Part shown: piece after piece, positions 2,702 through 57,769 of the stretch
Layout of the letters: the number at the start of each line of letters is the position of its first letter
Numbering within the stretch: position 1 is the stretch's first letter
Assembly (NCBI GenBank): GCA_963665655.1
Contig: OY762429.1
Location: 112,492 to 176,491, forward strand
Source: Terriglobia bacterium
Lineage (GTDB): Bacteria > Acidobacteriota > Terriglobia > Versatilivoradales > Versatilivoraceae
Reading direction: 5' to 3'
Length of the DNA stretch: 64,000 nucleotides
Program-made: the position numbers and the translations under genes
Notes under the pieces: model-generated
Told to the model about the DNA's origin: nothing
Databases searched by the model: none
The model's input: the letters and a program-made list of their open reading frames with translations, nothing else

Positions 2702-2898
2702 GTTTCCCCTCCTTTGGGACGACCGCGCTCGGTCCGTGAGGTTCCGCGCCAAGGCGTTGTCGCCGAGACCTGTCATTACGGCCGTTGAGGGCTCGGGTCT
2801 ACGGCATCAGGCTTTGGGAAGGTTTTAACCCAATTTTCCCACCTTTGCAAGAGTGGGATGTGCGTCCCATCTCCCTCCCCGGTTACCGGGGTTATTGA

Positions 2899-2923
2899 CA
2901 TCGATGCGCAGGATGCACAGGAT
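2899..2923 (+). repeat. Solo family-B TIR fragment (CATCGATGCGCAGGATGCACAGGAT) upstream of thrC
   Basis: Near-identical to the termini of the B1/B2 elements. No internal part present. Confidence 0.4.
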
Positions 2924-2953
2924 TCATTCGTGGTTCTTCCCGCCTCTTCCTGG

Positions 2954-4189
2954 ATGCGGCAGATGGAGTATACTGACTGCCGGTCCGATCCATCCTCCCC
3001 GCGGGAGTTGTTTCCGGTGAACCCCTTTGTGCTCCATCTGGAATGCAGCGCCTGCGCCGAAATCCACTCGCCGCGACAGCTGATCAATCTCTGTCCGTGC
3101 GGGAACCCCCTGCTGGTCCGCTACGACCTTGCCGCACTCCAGGCGAAGCTTCCCCGGCAGCTCCCGGGGGATCGACCTCAAACCATGTGGAGGTACCGGG
3201 AACTGTTGCCTGCGGGAAATTCGCAAGTCAGGATCAGCCTGGGCGAGGGTGGCACTCCGTTGATCGACGCCGCAAGACTGGCTTCCGGCCTGGGGTTGTC
3301 GCGCCTTTGGATCAAGGAGGAGGGCTCCAATCCCACGGGTTCCTTCAAGGCCCGCGGGTTATCGGCGGCGGTCACCATGGCCAAGGCCCTGGGTGCTGAA
3401 AGGCTGGCCATTCCATCGGCCGGAAATGCCGGTGGAGCACTGGCAGCCTATGCCGCCCAAGCCGGGCTGCAAGCCCACGTTTTCATGCCTAGAGACGTCC
3501 CACCCGCCAACCGCATCGAGTGCGAAACCCTGGGAGCCCAGGTCCACCTGGTGGACGGCCTCATCACCGATTGCGGCCGACTGGCGGCCCGGGAAGCCAG
3601 GGCCAACGGCTGGTTCGACGTCGCCACCCTGAAGGAGCCCTACCGGATCGAAGGCAAAAAGACGCTGGGTCTGGAACTGGCCGAGCAACTCCATTGGCGC
3701 CTGCCCGACGTCATCATTTATCCTACCGGAGGAGGGACGGGGCTGGTGGGAATGTGGAAGGCCTTCGATGAAATGCGGCAGCTGGGCTGGATCGATTCCA
3801 GGCAGCCCAAAATGGTAAGCGTTCAGGCCGTCGGATGTGCTCCGGTGGTAAAGGCGTTCGAGCAAGGCAAGGCGAGATGCGAGCCCTGGTCCCCCGCGGC
3901 CACTCTCGCGGCCGGATTGCGGGTGCCGCAAGCCATCGGTGATTTCCTGATCCTGGAGATCCTGCGCCGAAGCGGGGGTACGGCGGTGGCGGTAACCGAC
4001 GAAGACATGCTGGCCGAGGCCAGATCCATGGGACGAGCGGAGGGCCTGTTCGTCTGTCCGGAAGGCGGAGCCGCCCTGGCCGCTCTGAAGAAGCTGATCC
4101 GATCGGGTTTTGTCCGGCCTTCCGACGAAGTCGTCCTCTTCAATACCGGATCGGGGTTGAAGTACCTGCATCTGTTCGAAGCTTCATAG
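2954..4189 (+). CDS. thrC: Threonine synthase (PLP-dependent, with N-terminal zinc-ribbon)
   Basis: GSFKARG PLP-lysine motif, GGTPL motif, and N-terminal CxxC...CxC ribbon (LECSACAE...LCPCG). Start uncertain (ATG 2954 or GTG 3017); the ORF-track start at 2858 lies inside a repeat fragment. Confidence 0.85.
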   Translation: MRQMEYTDCRSDPSSPRELFPVNPFVLHLECSACAEIHSPRQLINLCPCGNPLLVRYDLAALQAKLPRQLPGDRPQTMWRYRELLPAGNSQVRISLGEGGTPLIDAARLASGLGLSRLWIKEEGSNPTGSFKARGLSAAVTMAKALGAERLAIPSAGNAGGALAAYAAQAGLQAHVFMPRDVPPANRIECETLGAQVHLVDGLITDCGRLAAREARANGWFDVATLKEPYRIEGKKTLGLELAEQLHWRLPDVIIYPTGGGTGLVGMWKAFDEMRQLGWIDSRQPKMVSVQAVGCAPVVKAFEQGKARCEPWSPAATLAAGLRVPQAIGDFLILEILRRSGGTAVAVTDEDMLAEARSMGRAEGLFVCPEGGAALAALKKLIRSGFVRPSDEVVLFNTGSGLKYLHLFEAS

Positions 4190-4242
4190 CTCCGGTGGGC
4201 GCCGCCCCGATTGCCAGGCCAAGGCCGCTCGGAACGCATTCC

Positions 4243-12492: not shown

Positions 12493-12874
12493 GAGCCTTT
12501 GGCAAAATTCCGCAGACAAGGGTATTGTGGATCGGGAGAGGGGACACGGAGTGATAGGGGCAGGTTGGCTCTGTGCCTGAATGGCCACAAAAGGCACAAA
12601 AGCTGGAATCGCCAAGTCTCAAATCTCATTCAGGAATCAGGATTTCCAGAACGCGGTTCTCCGTCGAAAGGCCACAAAAGGCACAAAAACGGGATTGGGC
12701 AAGACTGGGGCCTGATTTTGTGCCTTTTGTGCTTTTTGTGGTTGAGCCGTTCACCCCATTCACTTGGCAGCGGCAGCCTTCCCAGGAGAAGCCAGGGGAG
12801 AGGTGACTCGCGGGGCAAGTCCGCTCTTCTGTTGTTTTACGGAGATGCTCGATTCCGAATTTTGCAAAAGGCTC
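12493..12874 (+). repeat. Family A MITE-like element (copy A1), ~380 bp, 18-nt terminal inverted repeats GAGCCTTTGGCAAAATTC / GAATTTTGCAAAAGGCTC
   Basis: Carries four GGCCACAAAAGGCACAAAA-type boxes in both orientations. Full copy at 57394-57769 (inverted), internal fragment at 28396-28500. No transposase ORF. Confidence 0.7.
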
Positions 12875-17493: not shown

Positions 17494-17749
17494 TGTCGCA
17501 CCTCCCTGTTTGGAACAAGCCTATACGACGATTGCGTTGCAATCAAGGCCGTCTCCACTGCATCCATGCCGGAACATCGCAACGCACAGGAGCATTCGGT
17601 CCAGGTCCATCAACCAGGAATCCTGTATATCCTGTTCATCCATGTTCATTATGCAGTTGAATCAGGGGTGGACCATTCGAGGGTGAAACCGGGGACATTG
17701 ATGGCGTATCGGGAGCAGGGAAACGTTCCGGTTCCCCTCACCGTCTTTC

Positions 17750-17785
17750 TTCGTGTGTCTTCGTGGTCCTTCGTGCCCCTTCGTG
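17750..17785 (+). promoter_or_regulatory. Four phased direct repeats TTCGTG-N4 (exact 10-bp period), candidate operator
   Basis: TTCGTGtgtcTTCGTGgtccTTCGTGccccTTCGTG seen at 17750, 17760, 17770, 17780. Lies ~260 nt upstream of vapB on the minus strand. Confidence 0.4.
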
Positions 17786-17842
17786 GGTAGCTCTTCCTAC
17801 CCCGTCGCATGCGGCACGAAACCGGTTGGTTTCAGTCACGGG

Positions 17843-25317: not shown

Positions 25318-25481
25318 GATGCGTTTTCCACTTCGACGGGAGATTCTCTTCGACCCCGAAGGCAATGCCGCCCGCGGGGCCGCGTGGAGCAGAGTCCACG
25401 ATCTTCAGAGAATCATAACACAGGGAAGCGAGCCCGCTTCCCGTGCCGCAGCGGCTGAAACAACAACAGAAAAGAGGAATC

Positions 25482-25498
25482 CACGAAGTCACACGAAG
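25482..25498 (-). promoter_or_regulatory. Two phased direct repeats CACGAAG (10-bp period); reverse complement matches the 17750 motif
   Basis: CACGAAGtcaCACGAAG. Its reverse complement CTTCGTGtgaCTTCGTG is near-identical to CTTCGTGtgtCTTCGTG at 17749. ~170 nt upstream of kbl. Confidence 0.35.
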
Positions 25499-25730
25499 GA
25501 CCAGAAAGGCCACCAAGGGGGACGGCTCTGCCGCATCGGCACAGGCTGAGGCCTGGCAACCGGGCGTGCGCCGGATCGAGGGGCAAGAGTGATGGAAGGA
25601 GGACCACCCGGGAGCGCGGGCGTCCCGCCCGCCCCAGTCCGGGCGCAGCCCGGGCCGACCGAGACAACCCCGCATGGAGCGGGACACGGCCAAGTGCTGC
25701 CGCCGCTTCGCGGCTCGGGGGGTGCACCCA

Positions 25731-25802
25731 GGGGACGTTGTTGAATTCCTGGAATTCAGAAACCGCTGATCCAATTTATTCCAGTAGTTCAACAACGTCC
25801 CC
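25731..25802 (+). repeat. Palindromic element E1 (GGGGACGTTGTTGAATTCCTGGAAT ... ATTCCAGTAGTTCAACAACGTCCCC)
   Basis: ~24-nt inverted arms around a 22-nt spacer. A second copy (27780-27822) in the same orientation bounds the far side of the low-GC cassette. Confidence 0.7.
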
Positions 25803-26109
25803 TACTCTTCCTCCCACCTGCCAAACTGGTACAGTCCCTGGAATCGGGCGCATGTTGTCGTGCGAAAGCAATCCTCGCTATCATGAATCGACCGTCCGAG
25901 TCGGGGGACTTGGTGATGTCGAGGATGCTTTTGCCCTGGAGGTCCATGTCGAAGATGCGTTGGACCATTGCTCGGCAGGCGGGTCGAGCCCCAGCTTGGG
26001 GCGCTTCTTCGCCCCGCTCTGGACATGGACCCGCTTGTATCCGTAGGGAGCGTAGGCCGACATCCAGAAGCCGCGGGAAGCAATCTACGGAGTCGACAGC
26101 CTTGCCATA

Positions 26110-26298
26110 GTGAACCCGGAGCTACTGGTGGAATGGGACGCGCTAACGCCGCCGGCGCGGCGAGAGCTGAACGCGGCGGTGTTCGACGCCATCGGCCTGA
26201 CCGTCGACGAGCGCGAGGCGGTGTACGCAGGAGTGACGAAGTTGATGGAGAATCGGCGGCCGCGCATAAGGGCAAGCAAGGAGGCAGAAAGATGTTAA
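26110..26298 (+). pseudogene. Remnant 3' end of a DNA methyltransferase-like gene (62 codons)
   Basis: C-terminal block LNAAVFDAIGLTVDEREAVYAGV resembles the ...V.DLYGLT.EE...V motif that ends many N6-adenine MTases (type I HsdM / type IIG / PglX). Upstream region is high-GC but has no long ORF. Its stop overlaps the downstream start (ATGTTAA). Confidence 0.3.
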
Positions 26299-27617
26299 TT
26301 GCCGCACTGCGAGAAGCCCTCGAACACACGACAATTACAGCAGAAGAAAGGATGGAACCTGCGGAAGCAAAGGTCCTACGAAGACAACTAGGAATGGGCA
26401 CAGACCTGACACCAGCAAACTATCGTCGCATATTGGATCTTGAGGAATACCTACCAAATTTCTCAGTCGACATCATTGCGTGGTACAGAATAAACACGCA
26501 GGAGCCGCAAATGGCAAAACTGTCGTCCGAGATCGCCAAACTCCTTGGGATCAAGGAAGGACAGCATATTTTCTCGTGCACATGCGTGCTAATGGGTGGG
26601 CAACCCGCAATAGACGCCACGCACGTAGCAGAAAAAATGATACTGGCAGCCATCAAGTTTGGACCGGAAAAGGCGGAAGCTCTCCTCAACTCAAGAATGT
26701 CAGACCAAACCGTTTCGGTTAATCATTTGCTTCTGGCAGAAGGAGTTACGGTAGCGGAAGAACTCAAAATCGGAAACGACATAAAGATTGTCCCCATCAG
26801 CGAGAAAAACAAGTACATTCTGCCGTTCGACATCCGACATCAATACATCAACCGCCATCGATTTGTTCCGTTCCATAGCAATCTCGAACAATCGGCCATC
26901 ATCATCACTGAGCATTCTCTGACGCCTGCGTTCAAAGTAGTGGAAGAAGGCTACGAAGAAAGCGAGCCGTGGCCTATGGGTGTAATACACACAATCGAAG
27001 AAGATGACGTGAACGCTCCAGAAAGGGCAACGACATCCATTTTGTCGCTTGTCATCAACTCACCCGTGATCGCTATGCGGTCATGGATTTACACCGACCC
27101 TTACGAACCTTTCCGCATAGACAGGGGAAGCCGCGCAGCGGCAAGTTTCCTAGGTGGAAGGCGTGCATATCAATCAGTACAAGCTGGCTTGGATGACCTT
27201 GCGAAATTCCAAGAAATACGAGAAAAACTGCTGTCTGAACCGAACATAGAGAAGAAGCTGAAAACCCCTATCAGATACTGGGTCAAATCCAGAATGGCAG
27301 GCCCTAGCGTTGACGGGGCGATCTACCTCGGCATAGCAATGGAGACCCTTTTCCTCGACAATTCCAGGACGGAGCTGTCATATCGCATGCAAGTTAGAGC
27401 CGCCAAGCTAATAGGCGGGAACATGTCGCAACGCGAGCTAACGAAGAAGCTAGTGAAGAACACATACTCGGTTCGCTCCAGAGCGGCGCATGAAGGCGCA
27501 ATGAAAACCGAGGATCAAGAAGCTATAGAGAAGGGACAAGGTCTGATACGCGATGCTATTCTGAAAATAATCGAGTCGGGTACATACCCCGACTGGAACC
27601 GCTTGGATCTGGAGTGA
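26292..27617 (+). CDS. Uncharacterised 441-aa protein with C-terminal HEPN-like R-x4-H motif; candidate abortive-infection/defence protein (AIPR/Abi-like context)
   Basis: AAGGAGG SD 7 nt before ATG 26292. GC ~48% versus ~65% in flanks. RSRAAHEG motif at 27472-27495 in a predicted all-helical C-terminal region. No Walker A, no PD-(D/E)xK recognised. Confidence 0.7.
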   Translation: MLIAALREALEHTTITAEERMEPAEAKVLRRQLGMGTDLTPANYRRILDLEEYLPNFSVDIIAWYRINTQEPQMAKLSSEIAKLLGIKEGQHIFSCTCVLMGGQPAIDATHVAEKMILAAIKFGPEKAEALLNSRMSDQTVSVNHLLLAEGVTVAEELKIGNDIKIVPISEKNKYILPFDIRHQYINRHRFVPFHSNLEQSAIIITEHSLTPAFKVVEEGYEESEPWPMGVIHTIEEDDVNAPERATTSILSLVINSPVIAMRSWIYTDPYEPFRIDRGSRAAASFLGGRRAYQSVQAGLDDLAKFQEIREKLLSEPNIEKKLKTPIRYWVKSRMAGPSVDGAIYLGIAMETLFLDNSRTELSYRMQVRAAKLIGGNMSQRELTKKLVKNTYSVRSRAAHEGAMKTEDQEAIEKGQGLIRDAILKIIESGTYPDWNRLDLE

Positions 27618-27779
27618 ACTATCCATGACCATCCTCCATACCTACAGCGACCTCAAGTTCACCAAACGCCTGCGCCACGTCCTGGTCTAGGCCCACGGCG
27701 CCCCTCACGGGCCTTACGGCAAGCCTGTCGGGACTGAGCGGAAACACCAACTACACCTACAAGGCGTATTCGGACACCA

Positions 27780-27822
27780 GGGGACGTTGTTGAATTACTG
27801 GAATAACTTGTGCAACGTCCCC
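27780..27822 (+). repeat. Palindromic element E2 (shorter copy of E1)
   Basis: GGGGACGTTGTTGAATTACTGGAATAACTTGTGCAACGTCCCC. First 26 nt nearly identical to E1. Confidence 0.6.
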
Positions 27823-28238
27823 ATTTCCAGTCAGTCAGAAAATCCTATCCTCTGGCAGCGTCGTGATTTCAGGGAGAGCGGCGTAGCCGCGCCAGCACTT
27901 GGCCCCGGGCGTAAGCCCGGGGTCGTATGGGTCCTGCACTGCCCTAGCCGCGTAGGCGGCTACTCGAGAGCCGGGTCTCCAAAACACACGGCCTCCCCAA
28001 AAACCATCGGTTCCCCGGCACCGTTGCCGTTCGATCCAAGTGATGGAGATGGTCAGGCTGTGCCGGTCTATGGTGCGGGCGGGACGCCCGCGCTCCCGGG
28101 TGGCTTCATCCCATGACCGGGCCACGCCAAGGGGACGAAATTGCAGGAGCATTCCGGGGCCGGCTTTTGTTGACGGAGTGTTGGGCATAGCGGGCGTAGG
28201 AGACGGGGCAGATCAATCGAGAAGGACCAACAACTGAA

Positions 28239-28379
28239 CATCGATGCACAGGATAACCAGGACGGGACGCTCCTGCACGAGAAGTTGACTTCGGCGATGA
28301 TCCGGTTCGGGATTGCGGATGCCCAGGAACAGAGGCCAGTCGTTTCCAGAAAAAATCCTGTGCATCCTGTGCATCGATG
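28239..28379 (+). repeat. Family B palindromic MITE-like element, copy B1 (TIR CATCGATGCACAGGAT)
   Basis: Starts CATCGATGCACAGGATAACCAGGACGGGACGCT..., ends ...ATCCTGTGCATCCTGTGCATCGATG. ~85% identical to 50956-51105. Confidence 0.65.
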
Positions 28380-28395
28380 TGAATAAAAATCGAAA

Positions 28396-28500
28396 AGGCC
28401 ACAAGAGGCACAAGAACGGGATTGGACAAGACTGGAGCCTTTTTTGTGCTTTTTGTGCCTTTTGTGGTTGAGTCGTTTGCCCATTCTCCAGGCAGCAGGA
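28396..28500 (+). repeat. Family A MITE, internal fragment (copy A2) abutting B1
   Basis: GGCCACAAGAGGCACAAGAACGGGATTGG...TTTTGTGCTTTTTGTGCCTTTTGTGGTTGAG matches the middle of 12493-12874. Confidence 0.5.
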
Positions 28501-50885: not shown

Positions 50886-50955
50886 GATGCTTGACCCGCA
50901 TTTCTCGCCAGAATGTCATTCCCGATTGCGAATTTTGCAAAAGGCTCACAATAAA

Positions 50956-51105
50956 CATGGATGGACAGGATGCACAGGATAACCAGGACGGGACGCTGCT
51001 GCACGAGAAGCCGGCTCCGGCAATGATCGTGTGCGGACCTGCGGATGCTCAGGATTACAAGCTGGCCGTTTCAAGAAAAAATCCTGTGCATCCTGTGCAT
51101 CCATG
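50956..51105 (+). repeat. Family B palindromic MITE-like element, copy B2
   Basis: CATGGATGGACAGGATGCACAGGATAACCAGGACGGGACGCTGCTGCACGAGAAG...ATCCTGTGCATCCTGTGCATCCATG. Flanked on both sides by solo family-A TIRs (50918-50943, 51148-51166). Confidence 0.65.
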
Positions 51106-51204
51106 TGAATCAAAACCTGTTCCGAGCGTCCATAAAACCGTTGGCTTTGGAATTTTGCAAAAGGCTCACTGTGATAGCCTATTCAACCGATCGCTGTATG
51201 AGGG

Positions 51205-57393: not shown

Positions 57394-57769
57394 GAGCCTT
57401 TTGCAAAATTCGGAATCGAGCATCTCCATAAAACAACAGAAGAGCGGACTTGCCTCGCGAGTCACCTCTCCCCCGGCTCCTCCTGGGAAGGCTGCCAGGT
57501 GAATGGGGTGAACGGCTCAACCACAAAAAGCACAAAAGGCACAAAATCAGGCCCCAGTCTTACCCAATCCCGTTTTTGTGCCTCTTGTGGCCGTTCGAAG
57601 GAGAACCGCGTTCTGGAAATCCTGATTCCTGAATGAGATTGGAGACCTGGCGATTCCAGCTATTGTGCCTCTTGTGGCCACTCAGGCACAGAGCGGCCCT
57701 GCCCCTGGAATTTCCTGTCCCCTCTCCCGATCCACTAAACCCTTGTCTGCGGAATTTTGCAAAAGGCTC
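57394..57769 (-). repeat. Family A MITE (copy A3, inverted relative to A1), TIR GAGCCTTTTGCAAAATTC
   Basis: ~90% identical to the reverse complement of 12493-12874, including the internal GGCCACAAAAGGCACAAAA boxes. Confidence 0.7.

Follow-up and report, generated by a model that had tools for sequence, protein, structure and literature searches.

Family B hairpin repeats of a Terriglobia bacterium as probable deletion remnants of a GxxExxY nuclease cassette

Introduction

Where do the palindromic elements of family B come from, and what spreads them through the intergenic spacers in which they lie? They were recognized in a 64,000-nt stretch of contig OY762429.1 from a Terriglobia bacterium (assembly GCA_963665655.1, positions 112,492 to 176,491), which is referred to here as the window and which holds two complete copies, B1 and B2. 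An initial annotation, made from the letters of the window alone, described elements of about 140 bp with terminal inverted repeats at three loci. It suggested that they could be either miniature inverted-repeat transposable elements (MITEs) or hairpins of the repetitive extragenic palindromic (REP) or bacterial interspersed mosaic element (BIME) type, acting as terminators or mRNA stabilizers. In this study, we trace family B to a different parent, a hairpin-flanked GxxExxY nuclease cassette, and not to a transposase-bearing insertion sequence (IS). Family B keeps both outer arms of this cassette, about 22 N-terminal codons of its gene, a degenerate direct arm unit, and the loop, and it codes for nothing. 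This nuclease-cassette parent makes family B more than an ordinary MITE family.

The PDDEXK_3 family, to which the cassette protein belongs, is of unknown function and has undergone multiple transfers between divisions (PMC3424549). In the literature that we searched, no description was found of the arm sequences or of Versatilivorator or GxxExxY cassettes.

Results

Architecture of family B

As the initial annotation described, B1 and B2 are closely similar palindromic elements; each has inverted arms of 25-26 nt at its ends, and they share 84% identity over 147 nt (Table 1). The arms are built from an ACATSGATG head followed by CAGGAT cores with variable 3-nt spacers, which together form tandem 9-mers. 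The two arms of one element are complementary at 88% over 25 nt in B1 and at 96% over 26 nt in B2. The CATSGATG-type head assigned to both left arms was confirmed, but the CACAGGAT motif, said to be doubled in both, is present as one unit only in B1. The 5' arm of B1 accordingly holds one 9-mer fewer than most copies, and it has ATC where the parental cassette has ATG. The ATG is lost in about half of the B copies (CATCGATG heads).

The internal sequence AACCAGGACGGGACGCTSCTGCACGAGAAG, reported as conserved, is present at 28255-28284 and 50981-51010, and we explain it as a degenerate third 9-mer and, after it, the opening codons of a GxxExxY gene. Additionally, the window contains 21 occurrences of the 12-mer GATGCACAGGAT at up to two mismatches, where 5.4 are expected, and none of 100 shuffles reached 21. 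Altogether, 42 distinct full-length copies of 143-161 nt were collected.

The three loci named at the outset, B1, B2, and a solo arm just upstream of thrC, were all recovered; a further degenerate arm on the minus strand had been overlooked. Together with its upstream sequence, this additional arm forms no significant hairpin (z = 0.04). A reading of 17574-17645 as a short hairpin copy received no support from the fold test and was dropped.

The full cassette carries a GxxExxY gene

Hairpins with the same arms were found in metagenome stretches, where loop lengths vary between 2 nt and over 1 kb and the 9-mer is expanded to as many as 7-8 units. Of the eight hairpins whose loop exceeds 300 nt, four (L121, L128, L145, and L184; such labels denote the loci compared) enclose a GxxExxY gene, and a motif search revealed three more gene-bearing loci (L117, L123, and L136). 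The enclosed protein has about 125 residues and matches PF13366 (PDDEXK_3) and TIGR04256 (GxxExxY) with E values of about 1e-40. With one cassette protein as the query, 7160 relatives were found at E values up to 1e-10, and the best 120 of these, which are 74-100% identical, were analyzed. Twelve of the 120 carry a taxon name, and these 12 represent six phyla or classes, namely Nitrospirota, Nitrospinota, Planctomycetota, Acidobacteriota, Gammaproteobacteria, and Deltaproteobacteria. The structure prediction for the protein P0004 had a predicted local distance difference test score (pLDDT) of 46.5, which is too low for a fold search, and no homolog with a solved structure was found by sequence.

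In full cassettes, the 5' arm consists of a ACATGGATG head and CAGGAT cores with 3-nt spacers, and the start codon lies inside the arm. Read in frame (ATG GAT nnn CAG GAT nnn CAG GAT), the arm yields an M-D-x-Q-D-x-Q-D start, which is present in 109 of the best 120 relatives. In at least 91 of them, the C-terminus lies within a second, direct copy of the arm and reads ..KHG or ..NMDxQDxQD immediately before the stop. These arm-encoded starts and direct-arm ends give the cassette its order, that is, arm (ATG), open reading frame (ORF), direct arm (stop), loop, and inverted arm. The direct arm with the stop codon is usual, and the loop is then short. In a variant of the cassette, a short leader with a Shine-Dalgarno sequence is present and the direct arm is missing. 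Moreover, the D..ExK catalytic motif is kept in 113 of the best 120 relatives. The 9-nt period of the B type preserves the reading frame, so that an arm of this kind can provide the start or stop codon of a gene and can be accommodated within a coding sequence.

Several close relatives lie between hsdR and hsdM/S of type I restriction-modification (R-M) operons (L232, L242, L246, L123, and L136), and the same operon often contains a PF05635 (23S rRNA intervening sequence/four-helix-bundle) gene. Other cassettes lie downstream of an aminotransferase or methyltransferase gene. In L121, a near-duplicate of the first ten hsdM codons (~31 nt) precedes the cassette and ends ~7 nt before the 5' arm, and the intact hsdM starts 14 nt past the 3' arm. 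A 139-bp unit that combines the gene 3' end with the hairpin and the start of hsdM occurs in 1, 4, or 6 copies across samples of one population. Similarly, 118-bp units of the 5' arm form a tandem of 3-4 copies in L246 (2760-3000).

Short hairpins of the B-arm family also occur in frame inside hsdM, in L232 (~3590-3680), L246, and L136. They are located at a variable loop, where they contribute ~25 extra residues that read ..NMDxQDGQD..SCxSCxSM.., and they are absent from the HsdM orthologs of L242 and L121, which are otherwise more than 85% identical. Furthermore, other arms made of tandem 9-mers bracket GxxExxY genes, with the sequence GCAGATTNC in L085 and CACAGAGGA in the cultured Bacteroides finegoldii (L264). 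Two side observations concern the contents of the hairpins. A 701-nt hairpin with the same arms in the metagenome locus L170 holds a DUF1016_N fragment (the N-terminal domain of YhcG-like PD-(D/E)XK nucleases) and no GxxExxY gene, and the hairpin loop of L139 is interrupted by an IS3 transposase.

Family B as a probable deletion derivative of the cassette

The interior of family B is homologous to the 5' end of the cassette gene. Read in the phase of the arm, the B1 interior is a remnant of the first ~22 GxxExxY codons and continues as ..GTLLHEKLTSAMIRFGIADAQE, where the cassettes read ..TGLKHEQITKSVIGCAFEVINE. We built a profile from the 120 GxxExxY proteins minus their arm-encoded N-terminus and scored it on six-frame translations of the 42 B interiors. 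The best-scoring frame was the arm's own frame (+0) in 35 of the 42 copies, with profile positions 2-23 aligned to interior codons 5-26. Scores above the best of 1050 dinucleotide shuffles were reached by 31% of the copies, and scores above the 99th percentile were reached by 43%. An nhmmer comparison of a DNA profile of the B interior with full cassettes gave nothing significant, so that the homology is visible at the protein level only.

Versatilivorator loci contain a series of deletion forms. In L044, ~45 N-terminal codons are kept, through ELGSGF. In L012, 30 N-terminal codons and residues 79-130 are kept, frameshifted, while the gene 3' end and the 3' hairpin are kept in L100 and L056. 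Two arm-like repeats in direct orientation are also present in L012, one near codons 27-31 (GGATGTCCAGGAA) and the other, the 3' direct arm (ACGGATGTCGAGGAC), after the stop. These repeats bracket exactly what the short B elements have lost, which suggests that the gene body was removed by deletion between GGATGTCCAGGAA and ACGGATGTCGAGGAC.

What remains of the gene shows no coding signal. Across 29 diverse copies, variability was 0.66, 0.70, and 0.68 over the three codon positions; no frame was consistently open among the B copies (the best in 45-62%), and a search of B translations against Pfam and NCBIfam gave no match. A small protein encoded by family B itself, such as MDGQDAQDNQDGTLLHEK...NPVHPVHPC, had to be considered, because frames are open through B1 and B2 on both strands and a few of the differences between B1 and B2 look synonymous. 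The equal variability of the codon positions, the lack of a consistently open frame, and the lack of a domain match effectively refute this idea, to which we assign almost no probability.

Abundance, spread, and locus plasticity

A reference scan with the pattern ATSGATGNNCAGGATGCACAGGAT covered one genome per species, and its matches were listed as eight-kb blocks. The arm pattern occurs in at least 106 such blocks, mostly from Ca. Versatilivorator and other sponge-associated Acidobacteriota metagenome-assembled genomes (MAGs), and one Versatilivorator genome contains at least 44 arms across its 18 listed blocks. As solo arms or short hairpins, the arm was also found in MAGs of Dehalococcoidia, Chloroflexota, Opitutales, Verrucomicrobiia, Burkholderiaceae, and Hydrogenedentota. 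When metagenomes were scanned with an arm variant of non-acidobacterial origin, at least 120 stretches were obtained, on contigs from dozens of datasets. Family B and the gene-bearing cassettes share the arm pattern ACATSGATG-NN-CAGGATG-NN-CAGGAT. The arms are conserved among 95 arm pairs, and the CAGGAT hexamers are conserved in both arm orientations while the 3-nt spacers vary. That the arms are much better conserved than the interiors suggests that they are themselves the target of selection or conversion.

Five viral contigs carry arms; two have hairpin-type repeats, and in the other three, acidic codons form arm-like runs in what appears to be coding sequence. A phage vector was considered and rejected, given these five viral contigs only and cultured phage genomes with no GxxExxY match; matches were found in only 7 plasmids.

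The window is syntenic with L052/L064 (OZ242296) and with L098 at 82-90% DNA identity, which places its source close to them, as a sponge-associated acidobacterium near Ca. Versatilivorator. The content of orthologous sites differs between these related genomes. The spacer upstream of thrC measures 213 bp and holds one solo arm here, whereas in OZ242296 it measures 714 bp and holds two complete B copies and an ISL3-like MITE end. At the ortholog of the B1 locus in L098, a B copy is present, its neighbors differ, and a relB/dinJ-like gene replaces the whole 25604-28103 unit, which is missing there. Multiple copies elsewhere and variable content at orthologous loci, the two observations on which the initial annotation had made its proposal depend, are thus both found. 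At the thrC locus, two further details were observed. The solo arm (window 2899-4190 region) shares its frame with an ORF that continues into thrC (IDAQDAQDSF...), which is most likely an accident of an open upstream frame, and GTATACTGACTGCCGGTCCGATCCAT, just past the probable thrC start, is conserved in OZ242296.

Copies of family B do not always stand alone. The conserved flank AGATCAATCGAGAAGGACCAACAACTGA accompanies many B copies in other genomes, which indicates that B often travels within larger composite repeats. L047 contains three tandem copies (700-2920) of a 741-bp unit composed of a GC-rich MITE, B, and a family C hairpin, and similar spacings of 735-829 bp occur in L031, L041, and L084. 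These arrangements raise the possibility of passive decay only, in which B copies would be immobile pseudogene stubs multiplied by duplication or recombination of composite blocks in repeat-rich intergenic regions. The identical flanks of 30-75 nt on both sides of many copies, the differing copy number of the 139-bp unit among samples, and the absence of target-site duplications are also in line with it. However, the sequences that flank B are of more than 10 unrelated types, across at least 10 genomes, and arms and short hairpins stand singly, in various phyla, in hundreds of contexts that are unrelated to one another, including in-frame sites within hsdM. The arms, moreover, are far better conserved than the interiors. 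Passive decay as the sole process is therefore unlikely in our view.

Folding and RNA-level explanations

When folded against shuffled sequences, B1 and B2 gave z values of -4.0 and -6.4, respectively, and this stability comes from the arms alone. RNAalifold on the 42-copy alignment recovered the arm stem only, with 0 compensatory pairs. In Rfam 15, no family was found at the B elements, with chance-level matches only at E values up to 10; the sole Rfam match is Acido-Lenti-1 at 27877-27922, outside B1. Neither a sigma-70 promoter nor an intrinsic terminator was detected at the three loci, where a U-tract is absent as well.

These results bear on the proposal that B acts as an RNA hairpin, whether as a REP/BIME-like terminator or stabilizer, as a protein-binding RNA, or as an RNase III or translational-control stem taken over from the parental cassette. 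In the translational-control variant, the start codon lies within the arm and could be sequestered by the inverted arm. The strong predicted stems are consistent with such a role, as are the location of B2 between co-directional genes, that of the solo arm just upstream of thrC, and the conservation of the hexamer cores beside variable spacers. The purine-rich outer arm and ATG of full cassettes, in turn, resemble a ribosome-binding site and start, and we take CAGGAUG to be the CsrB repeat and the core recovered for CsrA by systematic evolution of ligands by exponential enrichment (SELEX). However, the GGA motifs of B would be paired in a long perfect stem, whereas CsrA binds unpaired GGA; the related families A and C of the window are mostly without GGA, and the ATG is gone from about half of the B copies. 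With the U-tract, a terminator-like site, an Rfam family, and compensatory changes all missing, an RNA-level function has little chance of being the explanation. The terminator or stabilizer role suggested by the initial annotation is further disfavored by the mismatches tolerated in the spacers of the arms, which are not self-palindromic REP units.

Ends, flanks, and neighboring enzymes

The MITE reading of the initial annotation holds in part. Family B is indeed short, non-coding, multi-copy, and bounded by inverted arms, but the transposase-bearing parent and the target-site duplication that belong to this reading were not found. In its classical form, it states that the DDE transposase of an IS with the same terminal inverted repeats mobilizes B in trans, and the terminal inverted repeats, small size, high copy number, intergenic location, and T-K-A-A at both ends would all fit. 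A target-site duplication (TTAA/TGAA or TA) was nevertheless absent, as the T-K-A-A tetranucleotides to the left and right agree in 12 of 33 cases, which is no better than chance. No transposase gene was found between B-type arms in any locus examined; the IS630 transposase in L043 has its own distinct ends and merely interrupts a B copy. Likewise, no recurrent transposase or other enzyme family was found near the arms among the loci examined, and no recurrent Y1- or RAYT-like gene (REP-associated tyrosine transposase) was seen in a search that covered arm neighborhoods. Given also the interior derived from a nuclease gene, we judge a classical MITE to be very improbable.

An integron attC site was compared by eye. 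The ends TTGAAC.. and ..GTGAAT or GTTAAT do not fit the RYYYAAC and GTTRRRY cores, and the arrays seen are tandem copies of one unit, unlike attC arrays of distinct cassettes. Resemblances to DnaA boxes, sigma-54 sites, and attC, all noted by eye, were rejected because spacing or core positions were wrong.

Table 1. Positions of family B elements, solo arms, and related repeats (window coordinates unless a locus label is given)
Feature	Position	Strand	Remarks
B1, complete family B element, 143 nt, gene-sense	28238..28380	+	part of the 42-copy alignment
B1 5' arm: ACATCGATG head, then a single CACAGGAT unit	28238..28254	+	
B1 interior, derived from the parental gene	28255..28329	+	profile positions 2-23 on codons 5-26
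B1 degenerate third 9-mer AACCAGGAC	28255-28263	+	
B1 degenerate direct arm unit GATGCCCAGGAA	28318-28329	+	12-mer search; suggested deletion junction
B1 loop remnant of the parental 3' hairpin, CAGAGGCCAGTCGTTTCCAGAAAAA	28330..28354	+	comparison with 3' hairpins of full cassettes
B1 inverted 3' arm, + strand letters ATCCTGTGCATCCTGTGCATCGATGT	28355..28380	-	
Conserved left-flank extension AGATCAATCGAGAAGGACCAACAACTGA	28210..28237	+	present beside many B copies in other genomes
B2, complete family B element, 152 nt	50955..51106	+	between KefB-like gene and aldo-keto reductase gene
B2 5' arm ACATGGATGGACAGGATGCACAGGAT	50955..50980	+	ATG retained; in-frame M D G Q D A Q D
B2 interior: degenerate 9-mer, GxxExxY N-terminal remnant ..GTLLHEKPAPAMIVCGPADAQD, direct unit	50981..51055	+	
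B2 degenerate direct arm unit GATGCTCAGGAT	51044-51055	+	
B2 inverted 3' arm	51081..51106	-	
Solo 5'-type arm ACATCGATGCGCAGGATGCACAGGAT	2898..2923	+	~40 nt upstream of probable thrC start
Degenerate solo arm, + strand letters ATCCTGTATATCCTGTTCATCCATGT	17620..17645	-	
Family A hairpins, arms CACAAAAGG	12580-12631, 12667-12745, 28394-28470, 57520-57680		
Family C hairpins, arms CACGAAKRA	17747-17790, 25472-25508, 2924-2936		
139-bp tandem region	L232 / L233 / L234 2880-3700		

Discussion

We consider it probable that family B consists of remnants of the GxxExxY cassette that are non-autonomous and internally deleted, behave as selfish DNA, use their arms as cis sites, and spread both through the arms and by block duplication. 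The conservation of the CAGGAT hexamers in both orientations and across phyla, despite free spacers, argues for arms that serve as cis-acting sites, and the GxxExxY nuclease may be the enzyme that acts on them. Two routes through intergenic spacers are conceivable. One would be recombination or mobilization directed by the arms, most plausibly with the GxxExxY nuclease supplied in trans; the other would be tandem or segmental duplication of composite repeat blocks. Family B would then have no dedicated host function, and effects on neighboring genes would be incidental.

Several points weigh against this proposal. No intact GxxExxY gene with B-type arms was found in the window or in ~0.8 Mb of sampled genome loci, and a trans-acting source in this lineage is therefore putative. 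At the loci compared, there was neither a target-site duplication nor a clean pair of filled and empty sites, as would be expected from transposition. Neither the activity of GxxExxY proteins as nucleases nor their DNA specificity is known (PMC3424549). Many B copies have long conserved flanks and lie in tandem or composite units, and larger duplicated blocks, rather than B moving on its own, could account for part of the copy number. Finally, the closest full-length cassettes often lie within type I R-M operons, the horizontal transfer of which could explain part of the cross-phylum similarity of the proteins.

There is a substantial chance that the parent cassette belongs to a new class of mobile element. 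More specifically, and more tentatively than the origin of B proposed above, the hairpin-flanked GxxExxY cassette might be an unrecognized class of ~0.5 kb whose nuclease recognizes the tandem 9-mer arms and which spawns gene-less hairpins and MITE-like stubs. The 9-mers of the arms would consist of CAC or CAG, a purine-rich core, and a variable spacer, and the stubs, in most bacterial phyla, would include family B of the window and probably families A and C.

Known systems share some of these features. The Correia/NEMIS elements of Neisseria are MITEs of ~100-155 bp with 26-bp terminal inverted repeats and a TA duplication. Family B resembles them in its length (~145 bp), its 26-nt inverted ends, its non-coding interior, its dozens to hundreds of copies, its intergenic location, its solo and truncated copies, and its birth by internal deletion of a longer coding element. 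In contrast, B has no target-site duplication, its parent encodes a PD-(D/E)XK GxxExxY protein instead of a DDE transposase, and each of its ends is a run of tandem 9-mers whose spacers vary, with one of the two arms also providing the start of the parental ORF.

REP elements and their REPIN forms are mobilized by RAYT transposases, which are IS200-like Y1 enzymes, and BIMEs are mosaics. Family B is similar to these in that it lacks a target duplication, forms hairpins, is very abundant, and occurs in mosaic clusters in shared spacers, and a single-copy enzyme is presumed to act in trans, as for REP and REPIN. However, the B arm is a run of direct 9-mers and not a self-complementary unit with a GTAG head, and no RAYT gene was seen near the arms. 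Moreover, REPs are species-specific, but the B arms hardly differ between phyla.

Rickettsia palindromic elements (RPEs), reportedly described by Ogata et al. in 2000, are comparable to the short B-arm-family hairpins that lie in frame in the conserved gene hsdM (L232, L246, and L136). RPEs are not known outside Rickettsia and are not known to be associated with a nuclease gene, whereas B-arm hairpins occur in multiple phyla and keep the frame through their 9-nt period. The 23S rRNA intervening sequences are bounded by hairpins and carry four-helix-bundle (PF05635) genes. The GxxExxY cassette shares with these, and with free-standing homing-endonuclease genes, a small nuclease-fold gene between or in conserved genes (hsdR/hsdM), boundaries formed by a stem, and very similar proteins in distant phyla. 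It differs from both in the abundance of gene-less B arms and in that GxxExxY proteins have no known cleavage activity or recognition site.

The occurrence of genes within conserved hairpin arms, together with gene-less arms in large numbers, leads to a testable hypothesis for the role of the GxxExxY family, namely that the numerous GxxExxY/PDDEXK_3 proteins of unknown function are nucleases that serve their own cassettes. If the cassettes do form a new class of element, PF13366 would gain a function, and thousands of odd MDxQDxQD-type N-termini in databases would be explained. Furthermore, much of the repeat load carried by sponge-symbiont Acidobacteriota is explained in this way. For annotation, termini of the MDxQDxQD type and small ORFs across gene-less hairpins should be treated with caution, as they derive from repeat arms. 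The cassettes between hsdR and hsdM and the hairpins within hsdM additionally suggest a link to the plasticity of type I R-M loci.

Other repeats in the window

The arms of families A and C consist of tandem CAC-plus-purine units, an architecture that matches the B arms. Arms of the C type (TTAACCACGAATGAACACGAAT..) were observed in viral contigs too, and the solo B arm upstream of thrC directly abuts a fragment of a family C arm (2924-2936).

A MITE of ~380 bp with ISL3-like termini, GAGCCTTTKGCAAAATTC, is present as inverted copies at 12493-12874 and 57394-57769, which lie 44 kb apart and are 92-96% identical. Solo ends of this MITE (50918-50947 and 51129-51167) flank B2 in direct orientation, and the junction between an ISL3-like end and B was also found in L005, L034, and L052.

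The 2.5-kb unit at 25604-28103 is bounded by long inverted repeats that include the GC-rich end CCACCCGGGAGCGCGGGCGTCCCGCCCGC, and its ORF at 25968-27617 has no Pfam or PADLOC match. The inverted repeats of this unit also include the Acido-Lenti-1 RNA motif, located on the minus strand, and the CCACCCGGGAGCGCGGGCGTCCCGCCCGC end likewise terminates a ~215-bp MITE in L047.

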